This document shows positions 10,043 through 43,400 of a DNA stretch of 64,000 bases, one piece after another. Each line of letters begins with the position of its first letter. Positions within the stretch are counted from its first letter, which is position 1. The notes beneath the pieces are model-generated. The model did no database searches, was not told the origin of the DNA, and worked only from the letters and a program-made list of their open reading frames with translations. The stretch lies in the NCBI GenBank assembly GCA_012813795.1, contig GCA_012813795.1_4087.1. The stretch is one strand, 5' to 3'. Source of the stretch: a phage. A program made the position numbers and the translations under genes.

Positions 10043-10345
10043 TTAATAATCATCAGCTTGTGGTAGATTATTAGTTACGCTTAGGATAGTTTCGATGTTG
10101 TCTAGTTTGTTTTGCTTATCAAAGTAATCACCTTTGTAAATGCGTTGTGCAGCTTGTTTGATATCGGATGCATCAATACCTAGCTCATCAGAAAGAGAGT
10201 TGATGAAATCAGTATAGGAAGCTTTGGTATCATCAATAAAGGTTAGCTGTACCACTGCATTGTTTAGACCATCACTTAGACGTTTACGTTGTTCGTCGTT
10301 TAGGTCACGAATTTCTACTTTTGCTTCTTTTTTAGACTTAGCCAT
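10043..10345 (-). CDS. hypothetical protein
   Basis: ATG at 10345 with GGAGAT RBS; followed by a terminator. Confidence 0.5.
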   Translation of the reverse strand: MAKSKKEAKVEIRDLNDEQRKRLSDGLNNAVVQLTFIDDTKASYTDFINSLSDELGIDASDIKQAAQRIYKGDYFDKQNKLDNIETILSVTNNLPQADDY

Positions 10346-12893: not shown

Positions 12894-13244
12894 TTAACTA
12901 ATTCTGAAGTTTACACCCGCATCTATCAGGCGTTGAAATGGATTTTGAGGATCAAACTCGGATGGGGTTTTAGGAGTGTTCAGTACTGGAGCATCAGCAT
13001 GTAACTTCGACATGCGTTCTTTGTATTTGTCAATATATTCTTCATACAACATGTCTTCTGAATCAGTACTCAATATATCTTCTATAAAATGATCAGTACT
13101 GTAATCCAGACGATCATCATTGTAATACAACGTCTCCGTAGCCTCATCATAACCCACCAACGTTCCATAAGGAACATTGATCTCAATTTTTGAGTACTGA
13201 CTCTTTAAGTACTCTTCTTTTTTAAAAATGTATACAGTTAACAT
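12894..13244 (-). CDS. hypothetical protein
   Basis: ORF within the endonuclease-like island. Confidence 0.4.
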   Translation of the reverse strand: MLTVYIFKKEEYLKSQYSKIEINVPYGTLVGYDEATETLYYNDDRLDYSTDHFIEDILSTDSEDMLYEEYIDKYKERMSKLHADAPVLNTPKTPSEFDPQNPFQRLIDAGVNFRIS

Positions 13245-13268
13245 AGTGAAAGCTTCCCTGCTTAGTGT

Positions 13269-14381
13269 TTATTCAAATGTATTTACAATCTCCAGTACTG
13301 TTTCAAGATACTTAGCATCAAAAGTTTCTGTGAATCCTGATGGCAACTCTTCAGTACTTACTACACCACTATCAATGTATTGTTTCAAAAACTTTTCCAG
13401 TACTAATGGTTTATGTCCATCTTCAAAGTAACGTTCTACCAGTACAGTGTGTTTAAAATCAGAATGACGACTTTGCTCATTTACACGGCGTTTCATATCG
13501 CCAGTGATTCCATACTTGTACACTGTCTTATCTTTATTAGTTAGTTTTTGAACATAGAAATATCCAGGTTTTGATGGCTGATATCCGTATTCACCACAAC
13601 CAGGACATCCCCTACCAGCAATGTGGGATTTTGGTGACTGTTGAAATATGCCATGTGTAGGACACGTTATTTTTACTGGAACAATACTACTTTCATACTC
13701 TACCGTACTGTAATCATACTTGTGACCATGAACTAGTTTTGCTTCAGAAATAAATTGTTCTGTTGTTCTTCCACCTTTACCAGAACATACACCACAACCT
13801 GATTTACCAAGTATCAATGTTTTTGGATCAACTTCCCAATCATGTTTCCCTTCATTACAATGTACTGTTACTTTAGTTGCTCTGTTAACATACTTTGTTT
13901 TTGAGAAACTAAGTTTATCACCATAGTTACGTTTGACAATTTTTATAAATTCGTCATTTGTATGCACAGTATTAATATTACAAACGTTACACCCAGCACC
14001 AGTTAATAACTTGTTCGGTGTTATGTCAAAATACCCACCATGTTCAGTACAGAATATTGAAACTTTAGTTTTTGCATTTACATAATTCAATTTATCAAAT
14101 TTAAATTTGTCAGCACCAAATTTTTTTTCAACTTTAGAAATGAAATCATCATTGTTTGAACGCTGTGACATGTTACTGTAACAATTTGAACATGTACATG
14201 AAATATGACGAATCGCTGATTTTGTATTTTCAATACCACATTTATTACATTTTAATGTAGTTTTACTTGATTTAAAAATCATTGAATCAAAATCAAACTC
14301 ACCATACATTCCGTATTTTTTAATCATATTTTCTTTAAAGTTTTTAATTAACATTTTATTCATCTCGGTGATTGTCTTCAA
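13269..14381 (-). CDS. homing-endonuclease-like protein: four tandem zinc-ribbon modules plus a C-terminal GIY-YIG/T5orf172-like domain
   Basis: repeats ...CxxHGxF...LxGxGCxxC x4; C-terminal GYFYV...YKYGIT...R..E. Confidence 0.6.
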   Translation of the reverse strand: MKTITEMNKMLIKNFKENMIKKYGMYGEFDFDSMIFKSSKTTLKCNKCGIENTKSAIRHISCTCSNCYSNMSQRSNNDDFISKVEKKFGADKFKFDKLNYVNAKTKVSIFCTEHGGYFDITPNKLLTGAGCNVCNINTVHTNDEFIKIVKRNYGDKLSFSKTKYVNRATKVTVHCNEGKHDWEVDPKTLILGKSGCGVCSGKGGRTTEQFISEAKLVHGHKYDYSTVEYESSIVPVKITCPTHGIFQQSPKSHIAGRGCPGCGEYGYQPSKPGYFYVQKLTNKDKTVYKYGITGDMKRRVNEQSRHSDFKHTVLVERYFEDGHKPLVLEKFLKQYIDSGVVSTEELPSGFTETFDAKYLETVLEIVNTFE

Positions 14382-14420
14382 TGTGATAATTATATATAAT
14401 TAAATTTACCATGTCAAGCT

Positions 14421-14454
14421 TTTTTGTAAAAGAAAAGGGACTCCGAAGAGTCCC
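14421..14454 (-). terminator. terminator after the major capsid gene (UUCG tetraloop)
   Basis: GGGACTC-ttcg-GAGTCCC on the minus strand followed by TTTTCTTTT. Confidence 0.7.
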
Positions 14455-14477
14455 TAGTATATTTAAATTCTTTGTTA

Positions 14478-15653
14478 TTACATGAAAGTAACGTTTTTGA
14501 TAGCGATTTTGCTGTAGTAGTCAGCAGCATTACCCAAACTTGAAGTTGAGTCAGTGAGTTGCACGTAGCCATAGCGTGTTAAAAATGTCGTGACCAATTC
14601 TCCAGTGTTAGGGTCCATTACAGTACCAGAAGCCATTAGTGGGATGTATGGGCAATAGAATACACCAGCATCAGTTTCTGCATTACCTTTATAACCAATT
14701 AGAATATCTTCTACATCTGAGGCGTAAGTATCGACAAATATACGCATGGTGCTGTTTAGAGTACCAACGAATTTAACGTTAGTTGGTGCTTCAAAAGTAC
14801 CTTCAGTAGTACGTGCAAAGCTGGAAGTAGTTGCAGACTGTAGAATGGTTAGAGCAGTTGGGGAAACAACAGCCCAGTTCGCAGCACCACGTTTGGTACG
14901 ACGAGCAACTTCGTTCGCTTGACGGTTGATTAGGGTAGCTAGAGCAGCGTGCTCATCACCTACGAAGGTTGCAACGCCAGTAACTTTAGATTGGTCATAA
15001 GTTACAGCAGCAGCACCAGGTAGTGCACGTAGACGGCTTAGTAGCTCTTGGTCGATTTCAACGGTAACTTCTTGAGCGATAGCAGCCATTAGTTCAGCTT
15101 CAACGTCGATACCATGTTGAGATTGTGCATCTTGTGCAGATTCAACAGTCCAACGTGCAGATAGACGACGAGATTTCGCTTCAACAGTTTCACGTAGGAT
15201 ACGGATGTTAACGCGACGACCCATAGTACCTTCTAGTTGGCTAGTAGGAGCAGCTTGTGGGTTACTGTTGTCAGAGTTTAGCTCACCAGTGTAAGATTTA
15301 GCAATCTTGAATGGAGATAGCATTTCTTCGCCAGCTACAACACCTGGTGCGTTGTCAGCGTATTGAACACGTAGAGTGTGGATTTGACCAACTGGGCCAG
15401 TCATTGGTTGAACACCGATGATTTCGTTAGCGATAACGGTTGGCATTACACGACGCATAATTGGTAGAATCACTTTGTTTAGAGTAGCGATGTTACCAGC
15501 AGAAGTTGCACCAGAGGTTGCAGATTCTTGTAGCATAACTTTGCGATGGTTATCAAGTACGGTTTCCATTACAGATTTACGAGTACCTTGAAGACCTTCA
15601 ACTAGTTTCTCTTTAACTGCTACCCATTTGGATTCATTTAGTAGTTGTGACAT
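14478..15653 (-). CDS. 23: major capsid protein (T4 gp23-like)
   Basis: IGVQPM, VEAKSRRL, GYKGNAETDAGVFYCPY align to T4 gp23; strong CTA/CGT/GGT bias. Confidence 0.9.
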   Translation of the reverse strand: MSQLLNESKWVAVKEKLVEGLQGTRKSVMETVLDNHRKVMLQESATSGATSAGNIATLNKVILPIMRRVMPTVIANEIIGVQPMTGPVGQIHTLRVQYADNAPGVVAGEEMLSPFKIAKSYTGELNSDNSNPQAAPTSQLEGTMGRRVNIRILRETVEAKSRRLSARWTVESAQDAQSQHGIDVEAELMAAIAQEVTVEIDQELLSRLRALPGAAAVTYDQSKVTGVATFVGDEHAALATLINRQANEVARRTKRGAANWAVVSPTALTILQSATTSSFARTTEGTFEAPTNVKFVGTLNSTMRIFVDTYASDVEDILIGYKGNAETDAGVFYCPYIPLMASGTVMDPNTGELVTTFLTRYGYVQLTDSTSSLGNAADYYSKIAIKNVTFM

Positions 15654-15682
15654 TATATTATCTCCTTAAAGATGTTATATTC

Positions 15683-15718
15683 GTTTTTCAGTATGTTATT
15701 ATTTATGGTACTGAAAAA
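15683..15718 (-). promoter_or_regulatory. late-promoter-like CATAAATAAT plus flanking inverted repeat upstream of the capsid gene
   Basis: minus strand TTTTTTCAGTACCATAAATAATAACATACTGAAAAA; about 45 nt before the ATG. Confidence 0.4.
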
Positions 15719-15745
15719 ATTGATTATTAAAATGCTTTAAAATGT

Positions 15746-16864
15746 TTATTTTTTATTGATACCAGAAAGAACGTCGAGTTCTTTTAGGAATGCCATATCG
15801 TCAGCGGTCATTTCTTCGCTTTCAACAATAGCCTGACGGTTGCCAGTGATTACTTTACCTTCTGCTAGGGTTGTTTTCTTCGCTGAAGGTTGAACTGCTT
15901 GACGAGTGGTAGCAGATTCATTTACTTTAGTACCGTTAAGTACAGACTTATGGTACTTGCTGAAATCTTCTTTAAGCTTTTCTGTTGGAGAAGCAGCTAG
16001 AAGGGATTCCATAATTTGTTTTTGTTGACTAGTCAAAGGCTTAACCAATTCAGACATAATCGCATTGCGTGCCTGTGTATCTTCCATGATACGTAGTTTT
16101 GATTGAACTTCTTTAACTGCGTTAACAGATTCATTTAGTTCTTGTTTAACTTGAGCAATCTCATCTTCTTTAGATTTGATTGATTCAGTCAAAGAACGAA
16201 GTAGTGAATTCTCATTAAATTGTTTGGTATTAAATTCTTGAGCAAATGCTTCAAAGATTTTACGACCGAACATATTTTGTTTAGCTTCAGCAAGATCTTG
16301 TTTCAAAGCGTAAAGATTTTTCTGAGTGGTTTCTGCAATATATTTAGCAGCACTTTCAGAGGTACGTTTGATAAAGTTATTACGTGCTTCTGCAATTTGA
16401 CGAGAACCTTCAGCAAGTAGTTTTACACGAGCTTCTACTAGTTGACGTTTTTCGCTGTGGAATTCTTTTAGTTCTTCAGCTAGGATACCGTTAGAGAAAT
16501 TAACGAATTTACCGAGGCTTTCTTGAACTAGTTTACGTTCGTTACGCATTTGTTTAACTTCTTCAGCTAGTACTGAATTAGCGAATTCAGAGAAGTTACC
16601 AAGAGTTTTACGGAGGGTAACGCGGTCTTCAACGAGACGTTTTTTCTCGTCATATACTGCACCCATTTCTTCAGCGATAACTTGAGTAACCATAGTGTTA
16701 AGACCTTCTGTTAGTTCAGCTAGGTCTTGTTTATAACGGCCTTTCATTTCTTCACGCATTTCAGCGGCTAGTGTGTTCTTTTCTTCATTCCATGCTTCCT
16801 GAATTAGCTGTTTTGCTTCATCAGAAAGAGATGATTCTTTTAGAAGCTTTTCTAATTTAGACAT
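15746..16864 (-). CDS. 22: prohead core scaffold protein (gp22-like)
   Basis: charged coiled-coil-like protein between protease and capsid genes; TATAAATA upstream. Confidence 0.65.
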   Translation of the reverse strand: MSKLEKLLKESSLSDEAKQLIQEAWNEEKNTLAAEMREEMKGRYKQDLAELTEGLNTMVTQVIAEEMGAVYDEKKRLVEDRVTLRKTLGNFSEFANSVLAEEVKQMRNERKLVQESLGKFVNFSNGILAEELKEFHSEKRQLVEARVKLLAEGSRQIAEARNNFIKRTSESAAKYIAETTQKNLYALKQDLAEAKQNMFGRKIFEAFAQEFNTKQFNENSLLRSLTESIKSKEDEIAQVKQELNESVNAVKEVQSKLRIMEDTQARNAIMSELVKPLTSQQKQIMESLLAASPTEKLKEDFSKYHKSVLNGTKVNESATTRQAVQPSAKKTTLAEGKVITGNRQAIVESEEMTADDMAFLKELDVLSGINKK

Positions 16865-16913
16865 TCTGTTCTCTCCTTTAAGTACTGAAATATCTGTACT
16901 TCAAATATACAAA

Positions 16914-16921
16914 TATTTATA
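16914..16921 (-). promoter_or_regulatory. T4-type late promoter TATAAATA upstream of the scaffold gene
   Basis: exact TATAAATA on the minus strand about 50 nt upstream of the start at 16864. Confidence 0.45.
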
Positions 16922-16932
16922 ATTTTAAAATG

Positions 16933-17553
16933 TTAACCTTTTAATTTCTTGAAAAAATCATAAATTTCAGAATCTAGTTTATTTACTGATTTAGATTCTG
17001 CGATTTTTTTAGGTCCATTGCAAGGTGAGCCGTACTTACTCATCAAAGACTCAAATACCGCTGTTGGGTACGCTTCGGGAGCACTAGGTTGAGCAACAAT
17101 ATCAATTGTGATAATTTCGAAATCAGAAACTATTCCATTATAATCAACGTTACCGGAACCACGAGAACTTACACCAAGTTTTACACCTGCTTCGAGCATT
17201 TTACGAATATTTTGACCATGTGCAGTATCAAGTAATTTGATTTCTGCCATCCCATTAGAACCTTCCATCCAGACTTTAGTAATCATTGCTGCTACACGGT
17301 CAAGGTTAATAGTCAAAGTTTCAGGGTGGTCACATTCTACTAGAATGCTTTCGCCTTTAGCCAAACGTTGAGCCATATTATTAACAGCTTTAGCAATTTC
17401 GGCTAAAGGGTAAATTCTTTCGTTCAAATTACGCTGGTCAGCTTGAATTGCGATACCACGAAGATAGCAATCGCGACCTCCCAGCCCATTTTCACGATGT
17501 TCCATAACAATTTGTGAATCATTGAATGAAGACCATTCACGAATCATACTCAT
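16933..17553 (-). CDS. 21: prohead core protease (gp21-like)
   Basis: size and position; VECDHPE motif; synteny portal-core-protease-scaffold-capsid. Confidence 0.7.
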   Translation of the reverse strand: MSMIREWSSFNDSQIVMEHRENGLGGRDCYLRGIAIQADQRNLNERIYPLAEIAKAVNNMAQRLAKGESILVECDHPETLTINLDRVAAMITKVWMEGSNGMAEIKLLDTAHGQNIRKMLEAGVKLGVSSRGSGNVDYNGIVSDFEIITIDIVAQPSAPEAYPTAVFESLMSKYGSPCNGPKKIAESKSVNKLDSEIYDFFKKLKG

Positions 17554-17583
17554 AATGATCTCCTTTCTTTGTTTTATTTATTA

Positions 17584-18426
17584 TTAGAATTTTGGTTGTG
17601 ATTTTGGTAGTGGGGAACGAGACTTAGAAGAACCAGTGGTTACTTTCTTAACGTCTTTCATTACGCCTTTGCCGCTATCCATAACATTATTCATGTCGTC
17701 TGGTACAGTGTGAGATTCAGTGTCTACGCCATCAAATTTGTCATCAACTACTGGAGTTGAGCTTTTAGCGATTTTTACTGGAGCTACGCCTTGTACTGGA
17801 GATTTAGCTTGGGAAGCGACTGGGGATTTAGTATTTGCACCAGCTTTTTCTTTCTTATCAACATCAGCAACTGCTTTTAGTTTGAAAGACTCACCAACTT
17901 TTTCATCACCGAATTGAACATCAGCAAAATCATCACCGCCGTCTTCGGAACCAACTTCTAGATCAACTTCTTCTTCGCCACCTACTGGTTCTTCAGCGTC
18001 TAGGTCAACTTCACCTTCGCCGGAGATTTCATCAAACATTTGTTGTAGGCCACGGAAAGCATCTTGAATGGAAGCCCATTGGTCTTCGGAAGGGACTTCT
18101 TCACCTTCTGCACCAACTTCACCTTCAGAATCTTCTTCACCAGCTTGGAATTCGATATCATCTTCAGCACTCTTGTCTTCTTCACCAAGAGAATATTCGA
18201 TTTGACTATTAAGACCAGCATCTGGGGAAACGTCGAAGTCTTCTTCTAGTTTCTCTTCTTTGTCGTCTTCATCGCAGCATTCTTCGTCGTCCATGCTTTC
18301 TTCTAGTTCTTTGTTAATTTCTTGTGCTTGTTCAACAAAGTACTTACGCATTTTTTTATCAGCTACATCTTGCTCGCCGTTAGCAAAAGCTTCGATTGCT
18401 TCTTGTAGTAGTTTTAAATTAGCCAT
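17584..18426 (-). CDS. acidic prohead core / internal head protein
   Basis: Asp/Glu-rich; ATG at 18426 with GGAGGA RBS; late-promoter-like motif upstream. Confidence 0.55.
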   Translation of the reverse strand: MANLKLLQEAIEAFANGEQDVADKKMRKYFVEQAQEINKELEESMDDEECCDEDDKEEKLEEDFDVSPDAGLNSQIEYSLGEEDKSAEDDIEFQAGEEDSEGEVGAEGEEVPSEDQWASIQDAFRGLQQMFDEISGEGEVDLDAEEPVGGEEEVDLEVGSEDGGDDFADVQFGDEKVGESFKLKAVADVDKKEKAGANTKSPVASQAKSPVQGVAPVKIAKSSTPVVDDKFDGVDTESHTVPDDMNNVMDSGKGVMKDVKKVTTGSSKSRSPLPKSQPKF

Positions 18427-18460
18427 TATATCCTCCAAAGATATATTTAATTCCTATAAA

Positions 18461-18490
18461 GTATGATATTATTTAGTACTGAAAAAATTC
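18461..18490 (-). promoter_or_regulatory. late-promoter-like CTAAATAAT with conserved flank upstream of the core protein gene
   Basis: minus strand TTTTTTCAGTACTAAATAATATCATACTT, near-identical to the element upstream of the capsid gene. Confidence 0.4.
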
Positions 18491-18530
18491 GTCATTTTTA
18501 AAAGCTTAAAAAATAGCGATTTTTAAGGTA

Positions 18531-18818
18531 TTACATCATTCCGGCATTCGCATCGGGTGCTGGTGCTGGAGCATAAACAACAGCGACTACATTATTTCTA
18601 CGCTGTTCTTCATTTGCTTTAAATTCTCTGTACTTACGCAAATTGTTAAGTACTTGCAATGTGAGTTTGGGTTTTCTGGAATCCGTAATTTTATATACGG
18701 TCTGATCATCTTCAGGGTCGTACATAGAATCAGAATTCGATTCAAAGATATCCTTTAACATGCTATCTCCTTGCATTAATATGAAGGGAATTTTTACGTT
18801 CCCTTCATTTATATACAT
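18531..18818 (-). CDS. small head-associated protein (gp67/68 position)
   Basis: position between portal and core genes only. Confidence 0.4.
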   Translation of the reverse strand: MYINEGNVKIPFILMQGDSMLKDIFESNSDSMYDPEDDQTVYKITDSRKPKLTLQVLNNLRKYREFKANEEQRRNNVVAVVYAPAPAPDANAGMM

Positions 18819-18830
18819 TGTTATTTATTA

Positions 18831-20558
18831 TTAAAAAGATTCACCTAAATTATTAGGGTCAAAAGAGCCATTTCCTTGCTGATTTTGGTATTCAGCGTCC
18901 GCACTTTCAAGATTACCTTCTGCATCCAATCCTAGGTCCATACCAGGGTCATTAGGGGAGTCGATACCAACTGACTGTAATCCAGCAACATCTTCTTGAT
19001 GTGGTGCATTAGAATCTTGTGGATTCTCTTGTAGCCATAGCTGTTCGTTTTTAACAATATCTTTCTGGGAGAAGCCCATTTTTTCAAGGATAGTTTGTTT
19101 AGCCATATATGGTAATTCATTAAGTGGCATATAAGTATTAATGAGTTTCGCATCCAATTCTGCCTTACGATACGAAGCTAAGTTAATTGGTGGATTCATA
19201 ATAACTTCAAAAGAAGAAGTACTAATGTTATATCCGCTTTTTACCATGAAACGCTTAAATTCAGCATCGAAAATTTTTGCTACTAGACGCTGATAACGCA
19301 TACATTGGTTATTAAAACGTAATTCACTTGCCATTGCTTGAGTTGCACCATCACCGAATAGTGATACACCACCGTCATCTGGGCCTTGTGGAAGGTAAGA
19401 TGCAGGTATTTGCAATCCGCGAATTAGTTTATTGTTGAAATATCTCAAGTCATCAATCTGACCCAAGTTATCGCCGCCAGGTAGTGTTTGAACATCTGAA
19501 CCACGACCTTCTGAAGTTTGTGGGAAGAAGTAGTCTTCCAGAATACTTAGTGGGTTATATGCTGCATCCATCAATGAAGTACTACCACCTTTATTAGAAG
19601 GTATACGTCTTTGGTGGATTTCATTTTTAAAGCGTTCAACATAGGCCATTGCTTGGTGAGTTTGCATATCCCCAACATCAATTTTGAATACACGGCGTTC
19701 TGGAGCACGTTGTACACGATAGATAATAATACTATCTTCAAGAAGTTCTTTTTGTTTGTAGACTTTAAAGACATCTTCTAGTATACTTGTACCGAAAGGC
19801 CAAACTCCATCTTGTCCTGTATTTAGTGACAGATGAATTACGTGTTCTGCACCGACTGGTAGGATATCCATACGACCACTGGTATTAAATGGATCGGAAC
19901 TATTACCTTGGTTGGTAAAGCCGGATGCACCACCTGCTGCAACTTGACCACCACCACCTAATGTATTAGGTACTGCACCTGGGTATGAAGCTTTATCGAA
20001 ACCAATTTGAAGGTTACTAAAAACTTTATCTTTAAGGTTAAGAGATACATCTCTTATGTAGTATATTACTGGAGTTTTTCCGGTTGCTTCGTTAACAAAA
20101 ACCTGTTCGACATTTTTTGGGTTCACCCAATACCAGTCGAATGTTTCGGGATCACGAATAAAGAACTGGTCACCGTACTTAAGTAGTCCGCGAACAATTT
20201 CATACATTCTTGTTTTGAAATCATTCTGTTCGGTCCATGCATCTAAGCGATCTTCAATAGTGGTTACTTCCGTATCACCAATATTATCTTTATATTTAAT
20301 TTTATATGGTAGACCAAAATCTTCAGTACTCTGTGTACAAAAGTCAGCAATAATGTTTAGTGCCGTTCTGATTTCTGGGTCTTGATCCATCTGGTCGTAT
20401 TGACTGTAACGGTCAGTACGGTTTGCTAATCCATTATAAACCACCGGAAGGTAGGAAGCAAAATTAGTTTTGCTCCCAGTGGATTTATTACTATTGGATT
20501 GCTGGGGTACGATCGATAATTTTGATCTTCCCATAGTCATGTGACGTTTCCAACTCAT
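18831..20558 (-). CDS. 20: portal protein (T4 gp20-like)
   Basis: IIYRVQRAPERRVFKIDVGDM aligns to T4 gp20 ([21 protein letters not shown]). Confidence 0.85.
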   Translation of the reverse strand: MSWKRHMTMGRSKLSIVPQQSNSNKSTGSKTNFASYLPVVYNGLANRTDRYSQYDQMDQDPEIRTALNIIADFCTQSTEDFGLPYKIKYKDNIGDTEVTTIEDRLDAWTEQNDFKTRMYEIVRGLLKYGDQFFIRDPETFDWYWVNPKNVEQVFVNEATGKTPVIYYIRDVSLNLKDKVFSNLQIGFDKASYPGAVPNTLGGGGQVAAGGASGFTNQGNSSDPFNTSGRMDILPVGAEHVIHLSLNTGQDGVWPFGTSILEDVFKVYKQKELLEDSIIIYRVQRAPERRVFKIDVGDMQTHQAMAYVERFKNEIHQRRIPSNKGGSTSLMDAAYNPLSILEDYFFPQTSEGRGSDVQTLPGGDNLGQIDDLRYFNNKLIRGLQIPASYLPQGPDDGGVSLFGDGATQAMASELRFNNQCMRYQRLVAKIFDAEFKRFMVKSGYNISTSSFEVIMNPPINLASYRKAELDAKLINTYMPLNELPYMAKQTILEKMGFSQKDIVKNEQLWLQENPQDSNAPHQEDVAGLQSVGIDSPNDPGMDLGLDAEGNLESADAEYQNQQGNGSFDPNNLGESF

Positions 20559-28030: not shown

Positions 28031-29062
28031 TTATAATGATCTATAGATTTGTATTAGTAGATTCTTGTCGAACATTGGAGAATCAATTTCCATGATTTGT
28101 TGTAAAACTATCTCATCAACTGATTCAGTACTTTCAAAGTGTTCACCTTCTTCCAAAAGTTCTTTGATACTTTGTTTACTTGTAACAACGTTAAACTCAC
28201 GAATATTATAAAGTTTAGTAAAAGTATCACGAATAAAACTAATCTCATCAGTTGTGATTGGAATATCAACCTGAACTTTCGAGATAGAGTTATCTTGTAA
28301 GTAATAACTTGGATCAGTTAGTAGCTCTGACAAAGTAAATGTTCTGTATTTCGGTGCAGCATCCCATGATTTGAATGTTGGTTCTGAACCGTGTTCAAGA
28401 ATCATAACACCTCTAGCATCATCCCATGTGTCTGAGAAGTTATGAGGGAAACAGTTACCAGTATAAATTACACGAGTTCCTTTAGATGTGAGTTTGGACT
28501 GTCGTTTATGGAAATGCCCACTAAAAACATACTCACAACCACCAAAAGAACCTTCAGTCTCTTTACCATGATCTGGCATTTCTACCATTTTGTTAAGCAA
28601 ATATCCAGGCAATTCAAGATGACCAAATACATATTTGCTTTGTAATTTAGGTAGCATTTTGTATTCATCTTCAATCATAAATGGGATGAAAGTACAATCA
28701 TCAATTGTTGTAATTTCATTAATGAACTCGATGTTTTCATAAACTTGTGCCATATTAATACTTGTAATATCGCGTTTGTTTTTATGATACATGTCATGGT
28801 TCCCAACTAAGAAGTAAACTTTATCAAAGTTGTCATTTAGTAATTGGAGAATTTGTAAACCATAGTTTAATGTTTGAATATTAATGTTGCTGCGGTTATG
28901 GAAGTAATCTCCCATAAACACACATACTTTAATACCTTTCTTTTTGGCTTCATCAATCATAAATTTAATGAAGTTCAAACAATCTTCGTTGTGCTGCTTA
29001 CTGTTATTCTTTAATCCTAAATGAATATCAGTGAATGTAATTGCTTTATCAAATAGTGCCAT
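28031..29062 (-). CDS. 47: recombination nuclease subunit (SbcD/Mre11-like, T4 gp47)
   Basis: phosphoesterase motifs DIHLG, GDYFH, GNHD; start refined to the ATG at 29062. Confidence 0.85.
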   Translation of the reverse strand: MALFDKAITFTDIHLGLKNNSKQHNEDCLNFIKFMIDEAKKKGIKVCVFMGDYFHNRSNINIQTLNYGLQILQLLNDNFDKVYFLVGNHDMYHKNKRDITSINMAQVYENIEFINEITTIDDCTFIPFMIEDEYKMLPKLQSKYVFGHLELPGYLLNKMVEMPDHGKETEGSFGGCEYVFSGHFHKRQSKLTSKGTRVIYTGNCFPHNFSDTWDDARGVMILEHGSEPTFKSWDAAPKYRTFTLSELLTDPSYYLQDNSISKVQVDIPITTDEISFIRDTFTKLYNIREFNVVTSKQSIKELLEEGEHFESTESVDEIVLQQIMEIDSPMFDKNLLIQIYRSL

Positions 29063-29888
29063 CGTCATTTTTCCTTTCAATCATATTCATTTCGATTTCA
29101 ATCTGTCTTGTATGTGATGGTGTAAAACCATGCATCTCAAGAAGGTCGTCGCGAATGTTACGTACATTCTTCTCACTGTTCAAAATAGAACGGAAGCTAT
29201 TGTTAACGAATGACGTATAGTATGAGAAAGGATTTAGTTGGACAGCAGGTTTATCTTTCTTATACAAGATACTCTCTTTGAAGAGAAGTGCATTTTTAAC
29301 TAATTGTATTCTAGCATCACCCATCATTTCATCCAAATACGTATAATTTCTGTAGTTAGATTTGTGAGAGATCTCTTCGGCTAGTTTAATGAACATTTTA
29401 CCGAGTTCATTTGTGATTTTACCATGTGTTAAGTAGAAATCGCCATCTTCCAAGTCGCCTTTCCAATGTGAACGAACAACTTCATACAGAATACCTTCAT
29501 TATCAACGATATAATGTTTAAATGGTTCAAAATTCACTCGTGTATCTGGTGGAATGTGCTCATCAGTGATAACTCTAATCACCACTTCATCCAGTGGTAC
29601 ATCATTTACGAATAGACCGTGCTCATCAGCATATTCCTTTGCTTTCTTAGCACTCATATTCTCTTTTTCGCGAACACTATCAAGCATTTCATTATTCAAA
29701 CGTTTGATTCGTGCTGCTTTTGCCTTTTCAAGTAATTCTTCTGTGATTTCAGACTCATGAAACACAATATAATCATACATACCATAACTTTTATCCAAAA
29801 GCCAGCAGTATGATATCTTACTTTTATGTATTTCACGTAATAAGTCTGCGTTATTCAGATACTTCTTACGCTTCGGCTTGTTTATCAT
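29049..29888 (-). CDS. 55: late-transcription sigma factor (gp55-like) with insertion
   Basis: YLNNADLLREI and NPFSYYTSFVNNSFRSIL resemble T4 gp55; 55-47-46 order as in T4; GGAGAG RBS. Confidence 0.5.
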   Translation of the reverse strand: MINKPKRKKYLNNADLLREIHKSKISYCWLLDKSYGMYDYIVFHESEITEELLEKAKAARIKRLNNEMLDSVREKENMSAKKAKEYADEHGLFVNDVPLDEVVIRVITDEHIPPDTRVNFEPFKHYIVDNEGILYEVVRSHWKGDLEDGDFYLTHGKITNELGKMFIKLAEEISHKSNYRNYTYLDEMMGDARIQLVKNALLFKESILYKKDKPAVQLNPFSYYTSFVNNSFRSILNSEKNVRNIRDDLLEMHGFTPSHTRQIEIEMNMIERKNDDGTI

Positions 29889-36849: not shown

Positions 36850-36885
36850 GATAAATATTTCTATATAAAATTTCAGTACTGACCC
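36850..36885 (+). promoter_or_regulatory. late-promoter-like GATAAATAT / TATATAAAA followed by TTTCAGTACT upstream of gp6
   Basis: motifs read directly upstream of the gene starting at 36915. Confidence 0.35.
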
Positions 36886-36914
36886 AGTACTTTATTGGCT
36901 TAAAGGATTAATAA

Positions 36915-39900
36915 ATGTCACAACAAAAAAGACAATCTAATTTATACGCGGGGGAAGACTGGACCCAGGTATATGAAAGTTTCTATAAAATCAATCTGAC
37001 AGCTTATGACTTCGACACTATACGTCAAAGTATGATTGATTATTTGCGTCAAACATATCCTGATTCATTCAATGACTGGATTGAGAATGACCAGTTTATC
37101 TTCATTTTAGATACTATTGCAATGCTAGGACAAAACTTAGCGTTTCGTATGGATTTAAACACGCGTGAAAACTTCCTAGATACTGCTAGTCGTCGTGCAT
37201 CTGTGCTTAAATTAGCTAAAATGATCTCCTATTCACCTCGTCGTGCATATCCAGGGCGAGCAACAGCAAAACTAACTGAAATTAAAACGAACCAAGACGT
37301 TCGCAACAGCTATAACGAATCACTTAAAGATAAAATTATCCGTTGGAATGACCCAATGGACTCTAACTGGTATGAGAACTTTATTCTGGTAATGAATAGT
37401 GCATTTGTCAGTACTAACCAGTTTGGTAACCCAGTAAAACGTTTGGATATTAATGGTGTATCTCGTCATTTATATAGAATGAACACTTTACCTATGTCTG
37501 CACCTAATTTACCATTCACGGCTACTGTAAATGGTGAATCCATGACATTTGAGGTCGTAAACCCTGATATTAACGTTATTGGTGTTGATGAAAGACACCC
37601 TGAGCCACAAGAACAGAAATATATTGTGTATCAGAATGATGGTAATGGTTTTAGTTCACCTAATACCGGATTCTTTGTTTATTTTATTCAAGGAACATTG
37701 CAATATCAGGATTTCCAGTACGATGTTAGACAAGAAAACCGTATTCAGGATATTAACGTAGATAATATTAACGAAACTGACGTATGGGTACAGGAAATCA
37801 CAGAAGATGGCATAGTTCGCACTAAATGGACTAAGGTTCCATCAATGGAAAGTATTGCATATAACACAGTAACACGTCAACTTAAAACAATTTATGCTGT
37901 AACTACCCGTGACCGTGACCAAATCAGTATTAAGTTCCCTGATTCACGTAGTGGTGTTGTTCCGCGTGGAACATATCGTGTTTGGTATCGTGTAAGTAAT
38001 GGTGAAACATACAATATCAAAACTGCTGACATTCAAAACAAAAGTGTTAAGTACATTTACAGAACTAAATCACAATCTAACTATGAAAATAGTACATTAG
38101 ATATTAAATTTAGTTTACAATTTGAATCCGACCGTGCACAAAGTGCCGAAACCCTTGAACAAATAAAAGCTCGTGCACCACAAATGTATTATACTCAAAA
38201 CCGTTTTGTGAATGGTGAAGATTATAACATTGCACCATTGAGTCAAGGCAACGCAGTACTGAAATCTAAGGCGATTAACAGGATTTATAGTGGACAATCA
38301 AGATTTATTGATATAAATGACCCAACAGGTAAGTATCAGAACACCGATGTGTTTAGTGATGATGGTGCAATGTACAAAAATGTCACCAAATACAATAAAT
38401 CTGTAAATTTACCAAGTACTAAATCTAATTCTAGTATTGTTATTGATGATATTCAACCATTAATTGGTGAAAATGCTGTTATTCAGAAGTATCAAGCATA
38501 TCCACAGAATACAGTACGTGTTGAATTACAACAAAACTGGGTTCCATCATATAGTTCAAGCTATGCAACTAACACTTATGGTCGTATTGTTGGGGCAACT
38601 GGTACAATTTATGGTGATTATAAAGTTGGTACATTGATTAAATTTGGTAGTAGCTCAAATAATATCGTATGGGCTAGTATTGTTAATGTGTTACCAAACG
38701 GTTTTTATGTTCTAAGTACACCAATTTCTTCCTCAATGCAGATCCAAGAGTATATTAGTCCATATAGAACTCGTTTCAACACTGTTGAAGTTCAAAATAT
38801 AGCTGCAATGTTAGATAAGAAAACAAACTTCATTCTAATTTATGATATTGTATCCACTGCATGGGTTCCTTTGGAGATTACAACTACTAGTGATACTATA
38901 ACATACAATGGTTCGTTGGTGCAGGTGATGGTTAACATCCAATATACTGCTGAAACATGGGAATTTGATTCCAACGGTGTTGAATATGTCTTTGTTGGTG
39001 GTGAAAAAGTTCGTTTTTACTTTGTAAGCTCTAAGAAAATCACTGATATTAGTTCTGGTTCAGTGCAAAGTGATAAAATTGAGATTCTTTCATCGAACTC
39101 TACTAGTACTAGTAACGTAGGTCTAACCAATAACATTGATTTCCAGATTCTGGATACAATAAAACAAGAAAATGGTTATTTGGATGGTTCCAGAGTTGTA
39201 ATTACATCTGAAAGTATGGATAGTAATGGTATTCCATTAAATCCTAACCAATTTCAATCTATCGTCCCTGATTGGACTGGTGAAGATTCTAGAAAGTATG
39301 GTGGTATCTTGGTATTCCAACAAAATGAAGATTTCACTATTTCTTCATTGCCATTACCAAATTCATCCTTCACTATAATGGATTCAACATGGAATTATAC
39401 AATGGATCAGGCATTAGCTGAAACTAATGCGTATAAGAGACAGGAATTCATTCGTAATAATGAAATTCGTTCAACTACATTGAGTGAAGTATATAGTAAA
39501 GGTACGGGTTTTATTATTGCATTCCAATACGAAGGACAATATTACTTCATAGAACAAACCGTTGGTAATAACAATGACCGTTTGGGTGTTCTAATTCAGA
39601 ATATGACTGAAGTTACTGATCCAAGTGCTGCTACACCAGAAACTGCATTCTATCGTTGTATTAAAAACATGGGTACAAGTGTTGACACTAATAAAAAGCT
39701 TAATTATTATGGTTATAAGGATATTACATCTGAACTTACTATAAAAACTAATGCTAGAACGTCCATTAACTTTCACTGGAAACACTATGCACCAGATGAT
39801 AACCGAATCGACCCAAGCAGAACCAACTTAATTGATATGTATGTTTTAACAAACTCATATAAGACTGAAGTTGATATTTGGTTGAAGAATGGTGCTAAGG

Positions 39901-40379
39901 GTGATATGCCGAAACCACCAACCTCTGTTGAATTACAAGATATCTTCAAAGATGTTGAGAAGAAAACAGTAATTAGTGATAGTTTGATATGGCATAGTGC
40001 TGAATACTTACCATTGTTTGGTAATAGTGCTGCACCGGATTATAAAGCTGATTTCAAAGTAGTGAAATTACCGAATAGTACAATGAGTGATGACGAAATT
40101 CGACAAAGTATAGTTTCATTAACTAACCAGTACTTTGCAGTTGAGAACTGGGATTTTGGAGAAAGCTTTTATTATACTGATTTGTGTACATACCTTCATA
40201 CACAACTTGGTAGACATATTAGTACTGTCGTAATTGTAGCTCAAAATCCTAATTCTAAGTTTGGTTCATTGTTCGAGATACCTTCTAGACCTGACCAAAT
40301 ATTCATTAGTACTGCAACAGTTGATAACGTACAAATCGTTAACTCTCTTGCGAAAAGTAATATTAATATTGGTTTTTAA
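36915..40379 (+). CDS. 6: baseplate wedge protein, gp6 / baseplate J-like, enlarged (1154 aa)
   Basis: N-terminal region resembles T4 gp6; position after gp25. Confidence 0.65.
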   Translation: MSQQKRQSNLYAGEDWTQVYESFYKINLTAYDFDTIRQSMIDYLRQTYPDSFNDWIENDQFIFILDTIAMLGQNLAFRMDLNTRENFLDTASRRASVLKLAKMISYSPRRAYPGRATAKLTEIKTNQDVRNSYNESLKDKIIRWNDPMDSNWYENFILVMNSAFVSTNQFGNPVKRLDINGVSRHLYRMNTLPMSAPNLPFTATVNGESMTFEVVNPDINVIGVDERHPEPQEQKYIVYQNDGNGFSSPNTGFFVYFIQGTLQYQDFQYDVRQENRIQDINVDNINETDVWVQEITEDGIVRTKWTKVPSMESIAYNTVTRQLKTIYAVTTRDRDQISIKFPDSRSGVVPRGTYRVWYRVSNGETYNIKTADIQNKSVKYIYRTKSQSNYENSTLDIKFSLQFESDRAQSAETLEQIKARAPQMYYTQNRFVNGEDYNIAPLSQGNAVLKSKAINRIYSGQSRFIDINDPTGKYQNTDVFSDDGAMYKNVTKYNKSVNLPSTKSNSSIVIDDIQPLIGENAVIQKYQAYPQNTVRVELQQNWVPSYSSSYATNTYGRIVGATGTIYGDYKVGTLIKFGSSSNNIVWASIVNVLPNGFYVLSTPISSSMQIQEYISPYRTRFNTVEVQNIAAMLDKKTNFILIYDIVSTAWVPLEITTTSDTITYNGSLVQVMVNIQYTAETWEFDSNGVEYVFVGGEKVRFYFVSSKKITDISSGSVQSDKIEILSSNSTSTSNVGLTNNIDFQILDTIKQENGYLDGSRVVITSESMDSNGIPLNPNQFQSIVPDWTGEDSRKYGGILVFQQNEDFTISSLPLPNSSFTIMDSTWNYTMDQALAETNAYKRQEFIRNNEIRSTTLSEVYSKGTGFIIAFQYEGQYYFIEQTVGNNNDRLGVLIQNMTEVTDPSAATPETAFYRCIKNMGTSVDTNKKLNYYGYKDITSELTIKTNARTSINFHWKHYAPDDNRIDPSRTNLIDMYVLTNSYKTEVDIWLKNGAKGDMPKPPTSVELQDIFKDVEKKTVISDSLIWHSAEYLPLFGNSAAPDYKADFKVVKLPNSTMSDDEIRQSIVSLTNQYFAVENWDFGESFYYTDLCTYLHTQLGRHISTVVIVAQNPNSKFGSLFEIPSRPDQIFISTATVDNVQIVNSLAKSNINIGF

Positions 40380-40460: not shown

Positions 40461-43400
40461 ATGACTAATAATTTTAAGTTTCTACCAACTAAAACGGCAG
40501 AAGCAGTACAACAGAAGCTTTTCATTAAAAGATTACCTGAATGGATGCAAGGCTTAGAAGACATTCAAAAGGTTAGTGATGATGTAATTCAACAATGGTT
40601 CAATCCAGCGGATAATGAAATCGTTGATGGATATATTGGTGATATGGGTTCTCCTGCTGCATCTGCTAAGATTTTCCTTGACGAATCAACCGTTGAACGT
40701 CAGCTATATCAATTATCAACAGCATATGTGTCTCGTAATGATGACACAAGCATTCGTTCGCTTCAATTTTATGATGATTTGGTTGGCTACATGGAACACT
40801 ATGGCACGTTAACTTCAAACGAGAGCCGTCTATTTTCTGGTAAGTTCTATTCTTGGACACCACCAATTAACCCAAACAAAATGACCAACTATAGTTCTTA
40901 TTTGTGGGATAGTAAAAATAGTTTTGGTATCACATCACCTGACTTTATTGTTATGGAACGTGGTGCTGATAACGGTAACACTTGGTCACTACAGAACTTT
41001 TGGTATACTATTGGACAAACCCTAGAAGATGGTACAGTACTAACTGCTGACATGACGCAGGATACTCGTTTTATTCGTGCACAAGCACCAATCATCGAAT
41101 ATAATAAAAACATCGAATTAATCAACTACGGAACAAATTTCCGTGGTATTGTTGACCTATTCTCTGATACAGTTAAACCAGAAGATATCGTTCAAAAGGA
41201 CGTTAACGATGGTATTCGTATCGATGGTATCATTCCACAAGATGGTATGCGTATTCTATTCACCAGTATCGGTAACGTTGGTGAAAACAACCGCATTTAT
41301 AAAGTTTTTATAAAGAAAATGCAAGATGGTTCTCGTACCTATGGTTTGGCACTAGATCCTGACGAGGAATCAGAAGAACGCCCAAGTGGTGAACCCCATA
41401 ACGGTGATGTAATTTTGGTGCGTGATGGTAATGTATATAAAAATACATCCATGTACTGGAATGGTGTTGATTGGGTTAGAGCACAAACCAAATCTGGTAT
41501 CAACGTGTTCCCACAATTCCAATTGTATGACCGTGATGGTTTCAAATTAAACGACACTACTATGTATCCATCAAGTAATTTCGTTGGATCATCACTATTT
41601 GGTTTCAAAATTAACTATAATTATGGCACTGATAAAGTATACGGTTATAATATTGAATTAGGTAATTATAATTACTACATGTACGAAAACTTTCTTCAAA
41701 GTGTTCGTTATACATATGATCATTTGGGTGTTGAAACAGAAATTTCTGGATTATATTACTATAATGTAGTTGGTAAAGATAATGAACTTCACCTTAAGAC
41801 CGATTGGGTTCGCTCAAAGGAAGATTCAAAACAATTTGTTAAACAAACACCACAAATCGAACATACTGATATGTATCGTGTATTCAATACTGTATTTGAA
41901 ATGGAAAACTTCAAAACTCCATTAGAAGGTATGTATGCATATGTCATTGAAGTTGATCGTACCTATCAATATTACAAAGAAGAACGTCAAACCTATATGG
42001 ATTGGCATGTAATTAGTGGTGAAGGTATTCAAAGTGAACGTTTCAATCGCACATTTGAATTAGCCCAGAAAATTATTGATGGTAAGAGTACTGAAATCAT
42101 TGAAATTCAAGTTGATGGTGTGGATGTAACCGATTATACACGTCATGTATATAATAACAAGGTTCAAAGCATCACTTTAGGGGAAGACGTTACTCTTAAA
42201 GATGAATCAGTAATTCAAATTAGAACATATAGCAGTACGGAAGTACCAAATAAAGAGTTGGGTGCATATGAAATCCCAATTAACTTACAAAATAACCCAT
42301 ACAACGATAATATTCTTTATATCAACCAAAGTAATTTTACATTACATTTTAAAGATATCATTCAAAAGAATATTACCAGTGGTTCAGTTGATGATTTCAA
42401 TGACTACGAAGAGCGTTTGTCTAAAGGTTTAGTAGATAACTCTGTAGGTACTAAGATTATCCAAAACGAAGCATCTATGCTACCGTTAATGGCACATTCT
42501 GCAAATGAAGACATTGACCTATTTGAATCTGTATTGTTTATGCAATCAGAGTACTTTCGTTTTGTAAACAAGTTCAATACACAAATGATTCGTTTGTATA
42601 ATGAGAACCCAGCAAACTTCTTAGCTAATAATGCTTCTAATATTGTTGATGAAATTCTAACAATTATTAATATGGGTCATGATAATACATTCCCATTCTA
42701 TTATGACAACGTGGCAAGTACTTCTGGTTTCATTCGTGCTTTTGTACCACCAACTCCACAGTTCTTAGGTATTTTAAAAGCTCACGTTCCAGAAAAAGCA
42801 ACATTTTTGAATGCTGGTAGTAAGCAAAGCTGCTATAACATCAGCCATACTGGTGCAATCACCAAAGCATACCGTGTAATTAACGGTGTTGATAAAATGG
42901 ATGACGTTATATATGAATTAGAAAATCGAATCTTCAATAGTATTGATGTTATTTTCAAAGATGAAGATTACCAACCTAAGCTAGATGCTTCTGACCTTTT
43001 CCCTACTCCGTATTTTAGAGATACAGAGTATAATGATGAAGAGAAGAAGAACTTACTACTACGTGGTTACATTAACTTCATCGCAACCAATGGTATCAGT
43101 AACAGTTCGCATGATTATGATCCAAATAACTGGATGACTTGGAATTATACTGGAACTTATTACATTGTTAATGGTCAACAAACACAAATACCAGCACGTG
43201 GTTCATGGCGAGCAATCTACACTGACCAATTTGGTACATATCGCCCAGCAACCCATCCGTGGGAAATGTTTGGATTCTCCCAACGTCCGGTTTGGTGGAA
43301 CCAAGAGTACGAACCAACAGCAGTTCAAGTTGGTGAACGCGACAGTGATGTTGTTTATGTATATGAGGCATTGGTTCTCAACGAACAAGGTAACATGGTC

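Follow-up and report, generated by a model that had tools for sequence, protein, structure and literature searches.

In a 64,000-nucleotide stretch of phage DNA (contig GCA_012813795.1_4087.1 of GenBank assembly GCA_012813795.1; the whole stretch is referred to as the window), the genes for the major capsid protein and for an acidic virion structural protein are each preceded by a near-identical minus-strand element. The question raised by this locus is whether the shared element represents an extended late promoter or a binding or processing site, as had been proposed in a first-pass annotation of the sequence. Both elements were found where that annotation had placed them and are called here E2 (capsid gene) and E1 (acidic-protein gene). 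Our analysis indicated that E1 and E2 are very probably paralogous late-promoter cassettes for the two head genes; the promoters belong to a kind already predicted for this phage family, and the element itself is ordinary. The CAGTAC sequence shared by both copies (within TTTTTTCAGTAC, after which the first-pass annotation had named the element) is not a late-promoter element but one copy of a genome-wide palindrome, AGTACT, that lies mostly inside genes and is a separate, strikingly over-represented and apparently unreported signal.

The sequence of E2 is CAATTTTTTCAGTACCATAAATAATAACATACT (15722-15690, minus strand) and that of E1 is GAATTTTTTCAGTAC--TAAATAATATCATACT (18490-18460, minus strand), with 29 of 30 aligned positions identical and a single 2-nt gap when counted from the sequences. 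Gapped local alignment extended the similarity to about 53 nt (15742-15690 against 18512-18460), further upstream than had first been noted, and gave a score of 61 in comparison to 18.5 ± 3.1 for shuffled sequences (maximum 34) and 35 for the next best pair among 19 late-promoter regions. The k-mer and shuffle counts suggested by the first-pass annotation placed the motif above chance level, as TTTTCAGTAC occurred exactly twice in the 64 kb (0.3 expected). BLAST of the 42-nt element against the whole 355-kb genome of Escherichia phage A4 returned only these two places. A gapped degenerate pattern search of the window found no copy beyond E2 itself and missed E1 because of its 2-nt indel. The likeness of E1 and E2 is a genuine and specific two-copy similarity. 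Both elements end close upstream of the ATG as had been described, although the distance measured 36 nt for E2 and 33 nt for E1 and not the 40–45 nt initially given.

The window belongs to a jumbo myovirus of the RaK2/PBECO4 type that infects E. coli. Over positions 14400-18900 it is 98% identical to phage A4 (Asteriusvirus), 84–87% identical to PBECO4, 121Q and phAPEC6, and 72–76% identical to RaK2, GAP32, CBB, Serratia BF, Yersinia fHe-Yen9-04 and Xanthomonas XaC1. The comparisons covered eleven relatives (five named genera and unclassified phages), the early region of A4 (1-50000) and positions 72290-98900 of the more distant relative PA5oct. The A4 annotation and PHROG matches bore out the initial gene assignments (Table 1), and the resulting gene map divided the window into 60.7 kb of coding and 3.3 kb (5%) of non-coding sequence.

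E1 and E2 share the conserved core (A/C)TAAATAAT-N2-CATAC, and the distribution of its first part identifies the likely function. A listing of the upstream regions of all genes showed that NATAAATAWT precedes many virion genes. ATAAATA was present in 21 copies on both strands of the window, 18 of them intergenic, and every one of these 18 sits 15–109 nt upstream of a gene start on the same strand. Elsewhere the motif is avoided: TAAATA was the second most depleted hexamer inside genes (15 vs 79, z = -8.4, synonymous-codon shuffling), and the 50-kb early region of A4 contained a single ATAAATA where about 21 were expected per strand. A logo of 19 late sites had no informative column from -26 to -12, i.e. 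no -35 element, and displayed a T-rich zone at -11 to -8, W at -4 and an ATA starting 6 nt past the motif. As A stands at the same distance in 15 of the 19 sites, transcription is predicted to start at the A of CATAC in both E1 and E2. In comparison to the T4 late consensus TATAAATA, E2 (CATAAATA) matched at 7 of 8 positions and E1 (ACTAAATA) at 6 of 8. Four features of a T4-type late promoter were found together in the window, namely the motif, the absence of a -35 element, the placement with avoidance elsewhere, and a gene for a sigma factor of the gp55 family.

This sigma factor gene encodes a 279-aa protein that matched phrog_12791 ('sigma factor for late transcription', E = 1e-150) and phrog_234 (E = 3e-17), and that was 27–30% identical to gp55 of T4-like cyanophages over residues ~124–255 by tblastn. 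Matches to the gp55 family were confined to residues ~124–262, and the N-terminal ~120 residues are extra. The protein is the presumed reader of ATAAATA, and we infer the pairing of sigma factor and promoter. The promoter region of the sigma gene itself (to ~29960) carries TGGGACA-N14-TGCTATAAT, which fits the 'TGAAACG' class listed for CBB, a class that in CBB includes its gp55-like gene (Buttimer et al. 2017, PMC5259590).

T4 late promoters, as cited in PMC5259590, have the sequence TATAAATA and are read by gp55, with gp33 as co-activator and gp45 as sliding clamp (Geiduschek and Kassavetis 2010). E1 and E2 resemble them in having a single AT-rich -10-type motif with an ATAAATA core before virion genes, without a -35 element, and in the presence of a phage-encoded gp55-like sigma factor. 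They differ in that the first T of TATAAATA is dispensable here (C, G, A and T all precede ATAAATA) and in that CTAAATA variants occur, and the sigma factor of the window differs from T4 gp55 in its ~120 extra N-terminal residues. A closer precedent exists within the same phage family, as ATAAATA was predicted as the late promoter of vB_PcaM_CBB and vB_CsaM_GAP32 with CTAAATA variants included (Buttimer et al. 2017, PMC5259590, Table S7), and the placement before structural genes is likewise the same. That study gave only a 14-nt MEME motif list and did not describe the 53-nt cassettes as a pair, CATAC as a conserved start region, any avoidance statistics or a link to AGTACT.

The proposed cassette would read, 5' to 3', as an AT-rich dyad with a T-run, a copy of the palindrome (AGTACT in E1, AGTACC in E2), the late promoter (A/C)TAAATAAT, and CATAC about 6 nt further on. 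At E1 the dyad would form a weak hairpin that resembles a terminator and follows the preceding gene. With the gp55-like sigma factor bound, RNA polymerase of the host would recognise ATAAATA in the absence of a -35 element, and transcription would begin at the A of CATAC. The resulting leaders would be about 40 nt long, with a strong ribosome-binding site at their end. Such an arrangement may serve to raise capsid and acidic-protein expression above that of the portal, the protease and the small open reading frame, and the position of both cassettes behind neighbouring genes fits a need for raised output of these two proteins. In the leaders (18424-18446 and 15651-15680, minus strand) the ribosome-binding site lies in the loop of a small hairpin directly before the ATG. 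These hairpins, UAUAUC-UUUGGAG-GAUAUA (also given as TATATCC-UUUGG-AGGAUAUA) and AUCU-UUAAGG-AGAU, are kept from Asteriusvirus to XaC1, with folding energies that are not significant.

Comparison with relatives separated the cassettes into a conserved and a variable half. At the capsid promoter, ATAAATAA was invariant in 11/11 relatives and was followed 2–3 nt later by CATAC in each except RaK2; the relatives also keep GAAAA and the ribosome-binding site, and most of them the T-run. CAGTAC at this promoter is replaced by CAGTTC in PBECO4 and EC.P1, by CAGG in Munch, by CAGTG in EJP2 and by CTGTAAG in GAP32, CBB, Serratia BF and Yen9-04, and RaK2 has a full CAGTACTG at the same position. The acidic-protein promoter of most genera reads (T/A)ATAAATAAT-N-ACATAC, with CTAAATA taking its place in the A4/PBECO4 lineage and in RaK2. 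In CBB and GAP32 the orthologous capsid promoter aligns with E2 and the orthologous acidic-protein promoter with E1, and PA5oct has a terminator followed by TATAAATAAT / GATATAAATAAT before its homologous acidic-protein gene, the product of which is recorded in the PA5oct annotation as detected in virions by mass spectrometry. Judged from these alignments, the half that is conserved throughout the family is the -10 motif with the start region, and near-identity of the upstream half is limited to the A4/EC.P1 lineage. Co-evolution of the upstream halves of both promoters within genomes gave no signal in an ungapped comparison (within-genome mean 6.1/18, between-genome mean 8.0).

Table 1. Features of the two cassettes and of the surrounding genes (positions in the window).
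Feature	Position	Strand	Remark
E2 cassette	15690-15742	minus	upstream of major capsid gene; AT-rich dyad, T-run, CAGTAC, late -10 motif, start-site region
T-run of E2	15714-15719	minus	fold -0.3 kcal/mol, no better than shuffles
CAGTAC of E2	15708-15713	minus	abuts -10 motif; AGTACC at 15707-15712 matches the palindrome at 5/6
ATAAATA of E2, -10-type late motif	15700-15706	minus	within CATAAATA; conserved in 11/11 relatives
CATACT of E2	15690-15695	minus	predicted start A at 15694, predicted leader 41 nt
E1 cassette, paralogue of E2	18460-18512	minus	upstream of acidic virion structural protein gene
Weak AT-rich hairpin at E1	18482-18524	minus	terminator-like, ends in E1 T-run; downstream of small open reading frame 18531-18761
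AGTACT of E1	18475-18480	minus	full palindrome copy; overlaps first two bases (CT) of -10 motif
CTAAATA of E1, variant late motif	18470-18476	minus	most other genera have TATAAATA or AATAAATA
CATACT of E1	18460-18465	minus	predicted start A at 18464, predicted leader 38 nt
ATAAATA late motif of scaffold gene	16914-16920	minus	within TATAAATA
AGTACT adjoining scaffold gene ribosome-binding site	16881-16886	minus	homologous column in 10/11 genomes
ATAAATA (36851-36857), then AGTACT twice (36875-36880, 36886-36891)	36851-36891	plus	leader of baseplate-wedge (gp6-like) gene
Major capsid protein gene	14478-15653	minus	served by E2; phrog_138, E = 6e-98; A4 annotation
Gene of protein annotated as scaffold	15746-16864	minus	
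Head protease gene	16933-17553		
Acidic virion structural protein gene	17584-18426	minus	served by E1; phrog_15696, E = 3e-105
Small open reading frame	18531-18761	minus	
Portal gene	18831-20558	minus	
gp55-like late sigma factor gene	29049-29888	minus	279 aa; PHROG and tblastn
Baseplate-wedge (gp6-like) gene	36915-40379	plus	

The upstream half of the cassettes required separate consideration, as the first-pass annotation had described an extended promoter. The late promoter and a downstream extension to CATAC that is conserved across genera were both upheld, and on the upstream side only a weak T-rich zone remained. T content upstream of late motifs was 0.49 in comparison to 0.34 (p = 0.004), and p = 0.025 with E1 and E2 left out. 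CAGTAC is not part of the late promoter because AGTAC lies within 14 nt of the late motif in only 2/19 promoters, E1 and E2 themselves, and because it is replaced at the capsid promoters of relatives; it is dispensable for explaining late-promoter function. The further copies of TTTCAGTACT that had been reported near the scaffold gene (16881-16890, minus) and the gp6-like gene (36871-36880, plus) are present, but they lie downstream of ATAAATA, in the leader. TTTCAGTAC occurred 13 times in the window (0.94 expected), with 9 copies inside genes according to the gene map.

A terminator directly before a late promoter recurs upstream of 36915 and 40461. The second of these positions begins a single open reading frame of ~3325 aa (40461-50438, plus strand), which is preceded by a terminator and an CATAAATA late motif. 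At E1 the hairpin folds at -4.8 kcal/mol in the window, which for this AT-rich sequence was equalled by shuffles; its shape is kept over 10 relatives, with 4 pairs maintained by changes on both sides and with weak energy, and the annotation of Salmonella phage Munch calls the equivalent hairpin a terminator. E2 contains a degenerate copy of the same dyad, TTTTAAAGCATTTTAAT, with practically zero folding energy. A terminator scan detected neither the E1 nor the E2 hairpin. The T-run as a terminator tail was not supported at E2, where a hairpin is absent (-0.3 kcal/mol), and at E1 this remained suggestive. A sigma-70 promoter scan of the region returned matches at chance level, one of which (9/12) is weak and overlaps E1, and the sole perfect match was the promoter of an HNH endonuclease gene described below.

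Several points weigh against E1 and E2 as late promoters of the T4 type. E1 carries CTAAATA in place of ATAAATA. Sequence searches of Pfam, NCBIfam and PDB with the gp55-like protein returned zero matches, leaving its assignment to the PHROGs and the cyanophage tblastn matches. In CBB a gp55-like sigma factor was noted and homologues of gp33 and gp45 were not detected (Buttimer et al. 2017, PMC5259590), so by analogy the activation mechanism may differ from that of T4. The searched literature yielded no transcript data for Asteriusvirus, and promoter activity and start sites are thus predictions. Finally, promoter function alone does not account for the 14 identical nucleotides, AATTTTTTCAGTAC, upstream of the motif.

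The AGTACT contained in the upstream half proved to be the window's strongest statistical signal. It had looked frequent by eye, and counting confirmed this with 125 copies in the window, where dinucleotide shuffles gave an expectation of 19 (6.6-fold). Inside genes there were 117 copies in comparison to 29 ± 5 after shuffling of synonymous codons (z = 17, 4-fold), and the synonymous-shuffle k-mer analysis ranked AGTACT as the most enriched of 2080 hexamers (z = 18), followed by CAGTAC/GTACTG (z = 15.7). The three reading frames held 64, 15 and 38 copies and intergenic sequence held 8; copies were even along genes, and their density was lowest in the head genes. Flanking preferences were symmetric, as C was favoured before and G after the hexamer with T-rich and A-rich extensions (extended consensus about TTC-AGTACT-GAA), while G before or C after was rare: CAGTACTG was found 18 times in the window and 60 times in the A4 early region, and GAGTACTC once and zero times, respectively. 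A cluster of 8 copies in 420 nt (12982-13404) lies near the HNH endonuclease gene.

The palindrome is denser still in the 50-kb early region of A4, with 229 copies against 16 expected (14-fold), spaced at 1 per 295 nt in coding sequence and 1 per 104 nt between genes. Among 35 sigma-70-type early promoters of this region, AGTAC abuts the -35 element (AAAAAGTAC|TTGCA) in 18, and AGTACTG stands directly 5' of TATAAT in about 13. Clusters of 2–3 AGTACT also occur just upstream of some of these early promoters. Enrichment was 3–8-fold in 11/11 relatives (Poisson p down to 7e-8), and the 43 alignment positions occupied in relatives were mostly lineage-specific. Since sites are mostly unshared between genera, individual copies of AGTACT turn over and its density is maintained. 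The copy adjoining the ribosome-binding site of the scaffold gene is the only one in the head module kept across genera, which suggests a position-specific role unlike that of the other copies. PA5oct had no AGTACT in 26.6 kb (9.7 expected, p = 6e-5), and its DNA has been suggested to carry a 7-deazaguanine modification (2025 preprint, PMC12191111). A 50-kb sample of E. coli K-12 contained 3 copies, and the spacing of one per roughly 100–500 bp in the phage clade corresponds to roughly 30–140 times the density of that sample.

Two mutational or compositional causes of the enrichment were considered. Codon usage or a Ser-Thr dipeptide was rejected, as copies occur in every reading frame as well as in intergenic sequence and lie 4-fold above synonymous shuffles. 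A conversion bias resembling very-short-patch repair was not supported, as no one-mismatch neighbour was strongly depleted (AGTATT/AATACT ratio 0.86); the only low neighbour, GGTACT/AGTACC (ratio 0.64), overlaps the avoided GGTACC. Possibly, DNA of the RaK2/Asteriusvirus/Mimasvirus clade is marked by AGTACT as a highly iterated palindrome, with the hexamer acting as the binding or modification site of a putative phage factor. A possible candidate for an AGTACT-binding factor is the 100-aa protein encoded at 10043-10345. That gene (minus strand) has a weak PHROG match to 'transcriptional regulator' (E = 5e-8), and AGTACTGATATAAT is found in the promoter region of the gene itself. Genes for adenine and cytosine methyltransferases have been reported in CBB.

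These results allow the alternatives to the late-promoter cassette to be weighed, two of which, an upstream element and an operator, are compatible with it. E1 and E2 could be truly extended promoters, the strongest of the late class, in which a second factor, or the additional ~120 N-terminal residues of the sigma factor, would read the T-run and CAGTAC. Consistent with this are the 14 nt of exact identity upstream of the -10 motif, which set the pair apart from all other late promoters, the general T-rich zone, the N-terminal extension beyond the cyanophage-gp55-matching region, the retention of TTTTTCAG at the capsid promoter in Asteriusvirus, Munch, EJP2 and RaK2, and the early promoters with AGTACTG next to TATAAT. 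We regard such an extension as unlikely, however, given that AGTAC is near the motif in 2/19 late promoters only, that the distance of the shared segment from the -10 motif differs by 2 nt between E1 and E2, that the hairpin accounts for the T-run of E1, and that PBECO4, Munch, EJP2, GAP32 and XaC1 have lost CAGTAC from the capsid promoter, as have EJP2, RaK2, GAP32 and XaC1 from the acidic-protein promoter.

Alternatively, CAGTAC(T) could be an operator through which a dimeric AGTACT-binder of phage or host origin modulates both promoters, e.g. in timing or shut-off. Strong genome-wide positive selection on AGTACT, its palindromic form with symmetric flanks, its two fixed positions in early promoters (18/35 at -35 and ~13/35 at -10) and its overlap with the first two bases of the E1 -10 motif would all suit an operator; we nevertheless find this rather doubtful, as the binding protein is putative, E2 matches the palindrome at only 5/6, intergenic AGTACT in the late region is no denser than coding (8 in 3.3 kb vs 117 in 60.7 kb), and the early promoter cassettes are possibly mutual duplicates, so that their position counts are not independent. 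An RNA-level role was judged very improbable, whether as a shared translational leader or as a site that governs processing or stability of RNA reading through from the portal and scaffold genes. Both cassettes do lie between co-oriented genes, where read-through RNA would include them, and the ribosome-binding sites do sit in hairpin loops kept in relatives, but what is invariant is a DNA motif of 7 nt also present at 17 other sites with unrelated flanks, neither upstream nor leader hairpins fold significantly better than shuffles, no Rfam match was found at E <= 1, and the stretch of highest similarity precedes the predicted start and would be absent from the main transcript. Nothing was found at the locus that speaks for RNA processing, the third function initially proposed.

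Two further late promoters for a predicted class are useful for annotation and for the choice of strong late promoters in phage engineering, but they are unsurprising. Of greater interest is the finding on AGTACT. Avoidance of palindromes is the rule in phages, and it is unusual for one to be the top over-represented hexamer of a phage against codon-preserving shuffles; this enrichment is common to five genera and absent in PA5oct. No report linking AGTACT to these phages was found in the searched literature, including those genome papers of the family that were part of it. A factor binding or modifying AGTACT, if real, could distinguish phage from host DNA or coordinate promoter use across 350 kb, and would offer a handle on how jumbo phages that do not form a nucleus organise or label a genome of this size. 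The enrichment merits follow-up.

Two known iterated or bound sequences invite comparison. The nearest analogue of AGTACT is HIP1 (GCGATCGC), which is highly iterated in cyanobacteria (Elhai 2015, PMC4390886). AGTACT resembles it as a short palindrome far above expectation that occurs in coding (three frames) and intergenic sequence with enrichment kept across related genomes. AGTACT shows the statistical properties of HIP-like sequences, and any cognate methyltransferase is putative. The two differ in that HIP1 is a GC-rich octamer of a cellular genome and AGTACT an AT-rich 6–8 bp viral palindrome found in early-promoter architecture. SlmA of E. coli binds GTGAGTACTCAC and depends on G1, T2 and a purine at position 3 (Tonthat et al. 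2011, PMC3020112). This binding sequence is also palindromic, with AGTACT as its central hexamer. Unlike it, the phage sites favour C and avoid G at position 3, and G is the rarest base before the hexamer. SlmA sites were rejected as an explanation, as the full GTRAGYRCTYAC was found in 0/354 copies and the half-site GT[GA]AGTACT in 1/125 (window) and 0/229 (early region).

Other oligonucleotide biases were also evident in the window. Several palindromes were absent in comparison to synonymous-shuffle expectations (GCGC 0 vs ~40, CTGCAG 0 vs 24, CAGCTG 0 vs 19, GGTACC 0 vs 17), and CCGG, GGCC and GATC were reduced; the missing palindromes look like restriction avoidance. GCGC was likewise absent from 11/11 relatives and the A4 early region, and was not avoided in PA5oct (25 vs 30). 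The most depleted hexamer inside genes was AAAAAA (54 vs 148, z = -9.3, synonymous shuffling), with AAATTT, AAAATT and TTCGAA depleted as well. Directly downstream of the capsid gene lies a gene for an HNH homing-type endonuclease (13269-14354, minus strand), the promoter of which (14417-14389) is a perfect TTGACA-17-TATAAT positioned just after a strong capsid terminator (14455-14436).

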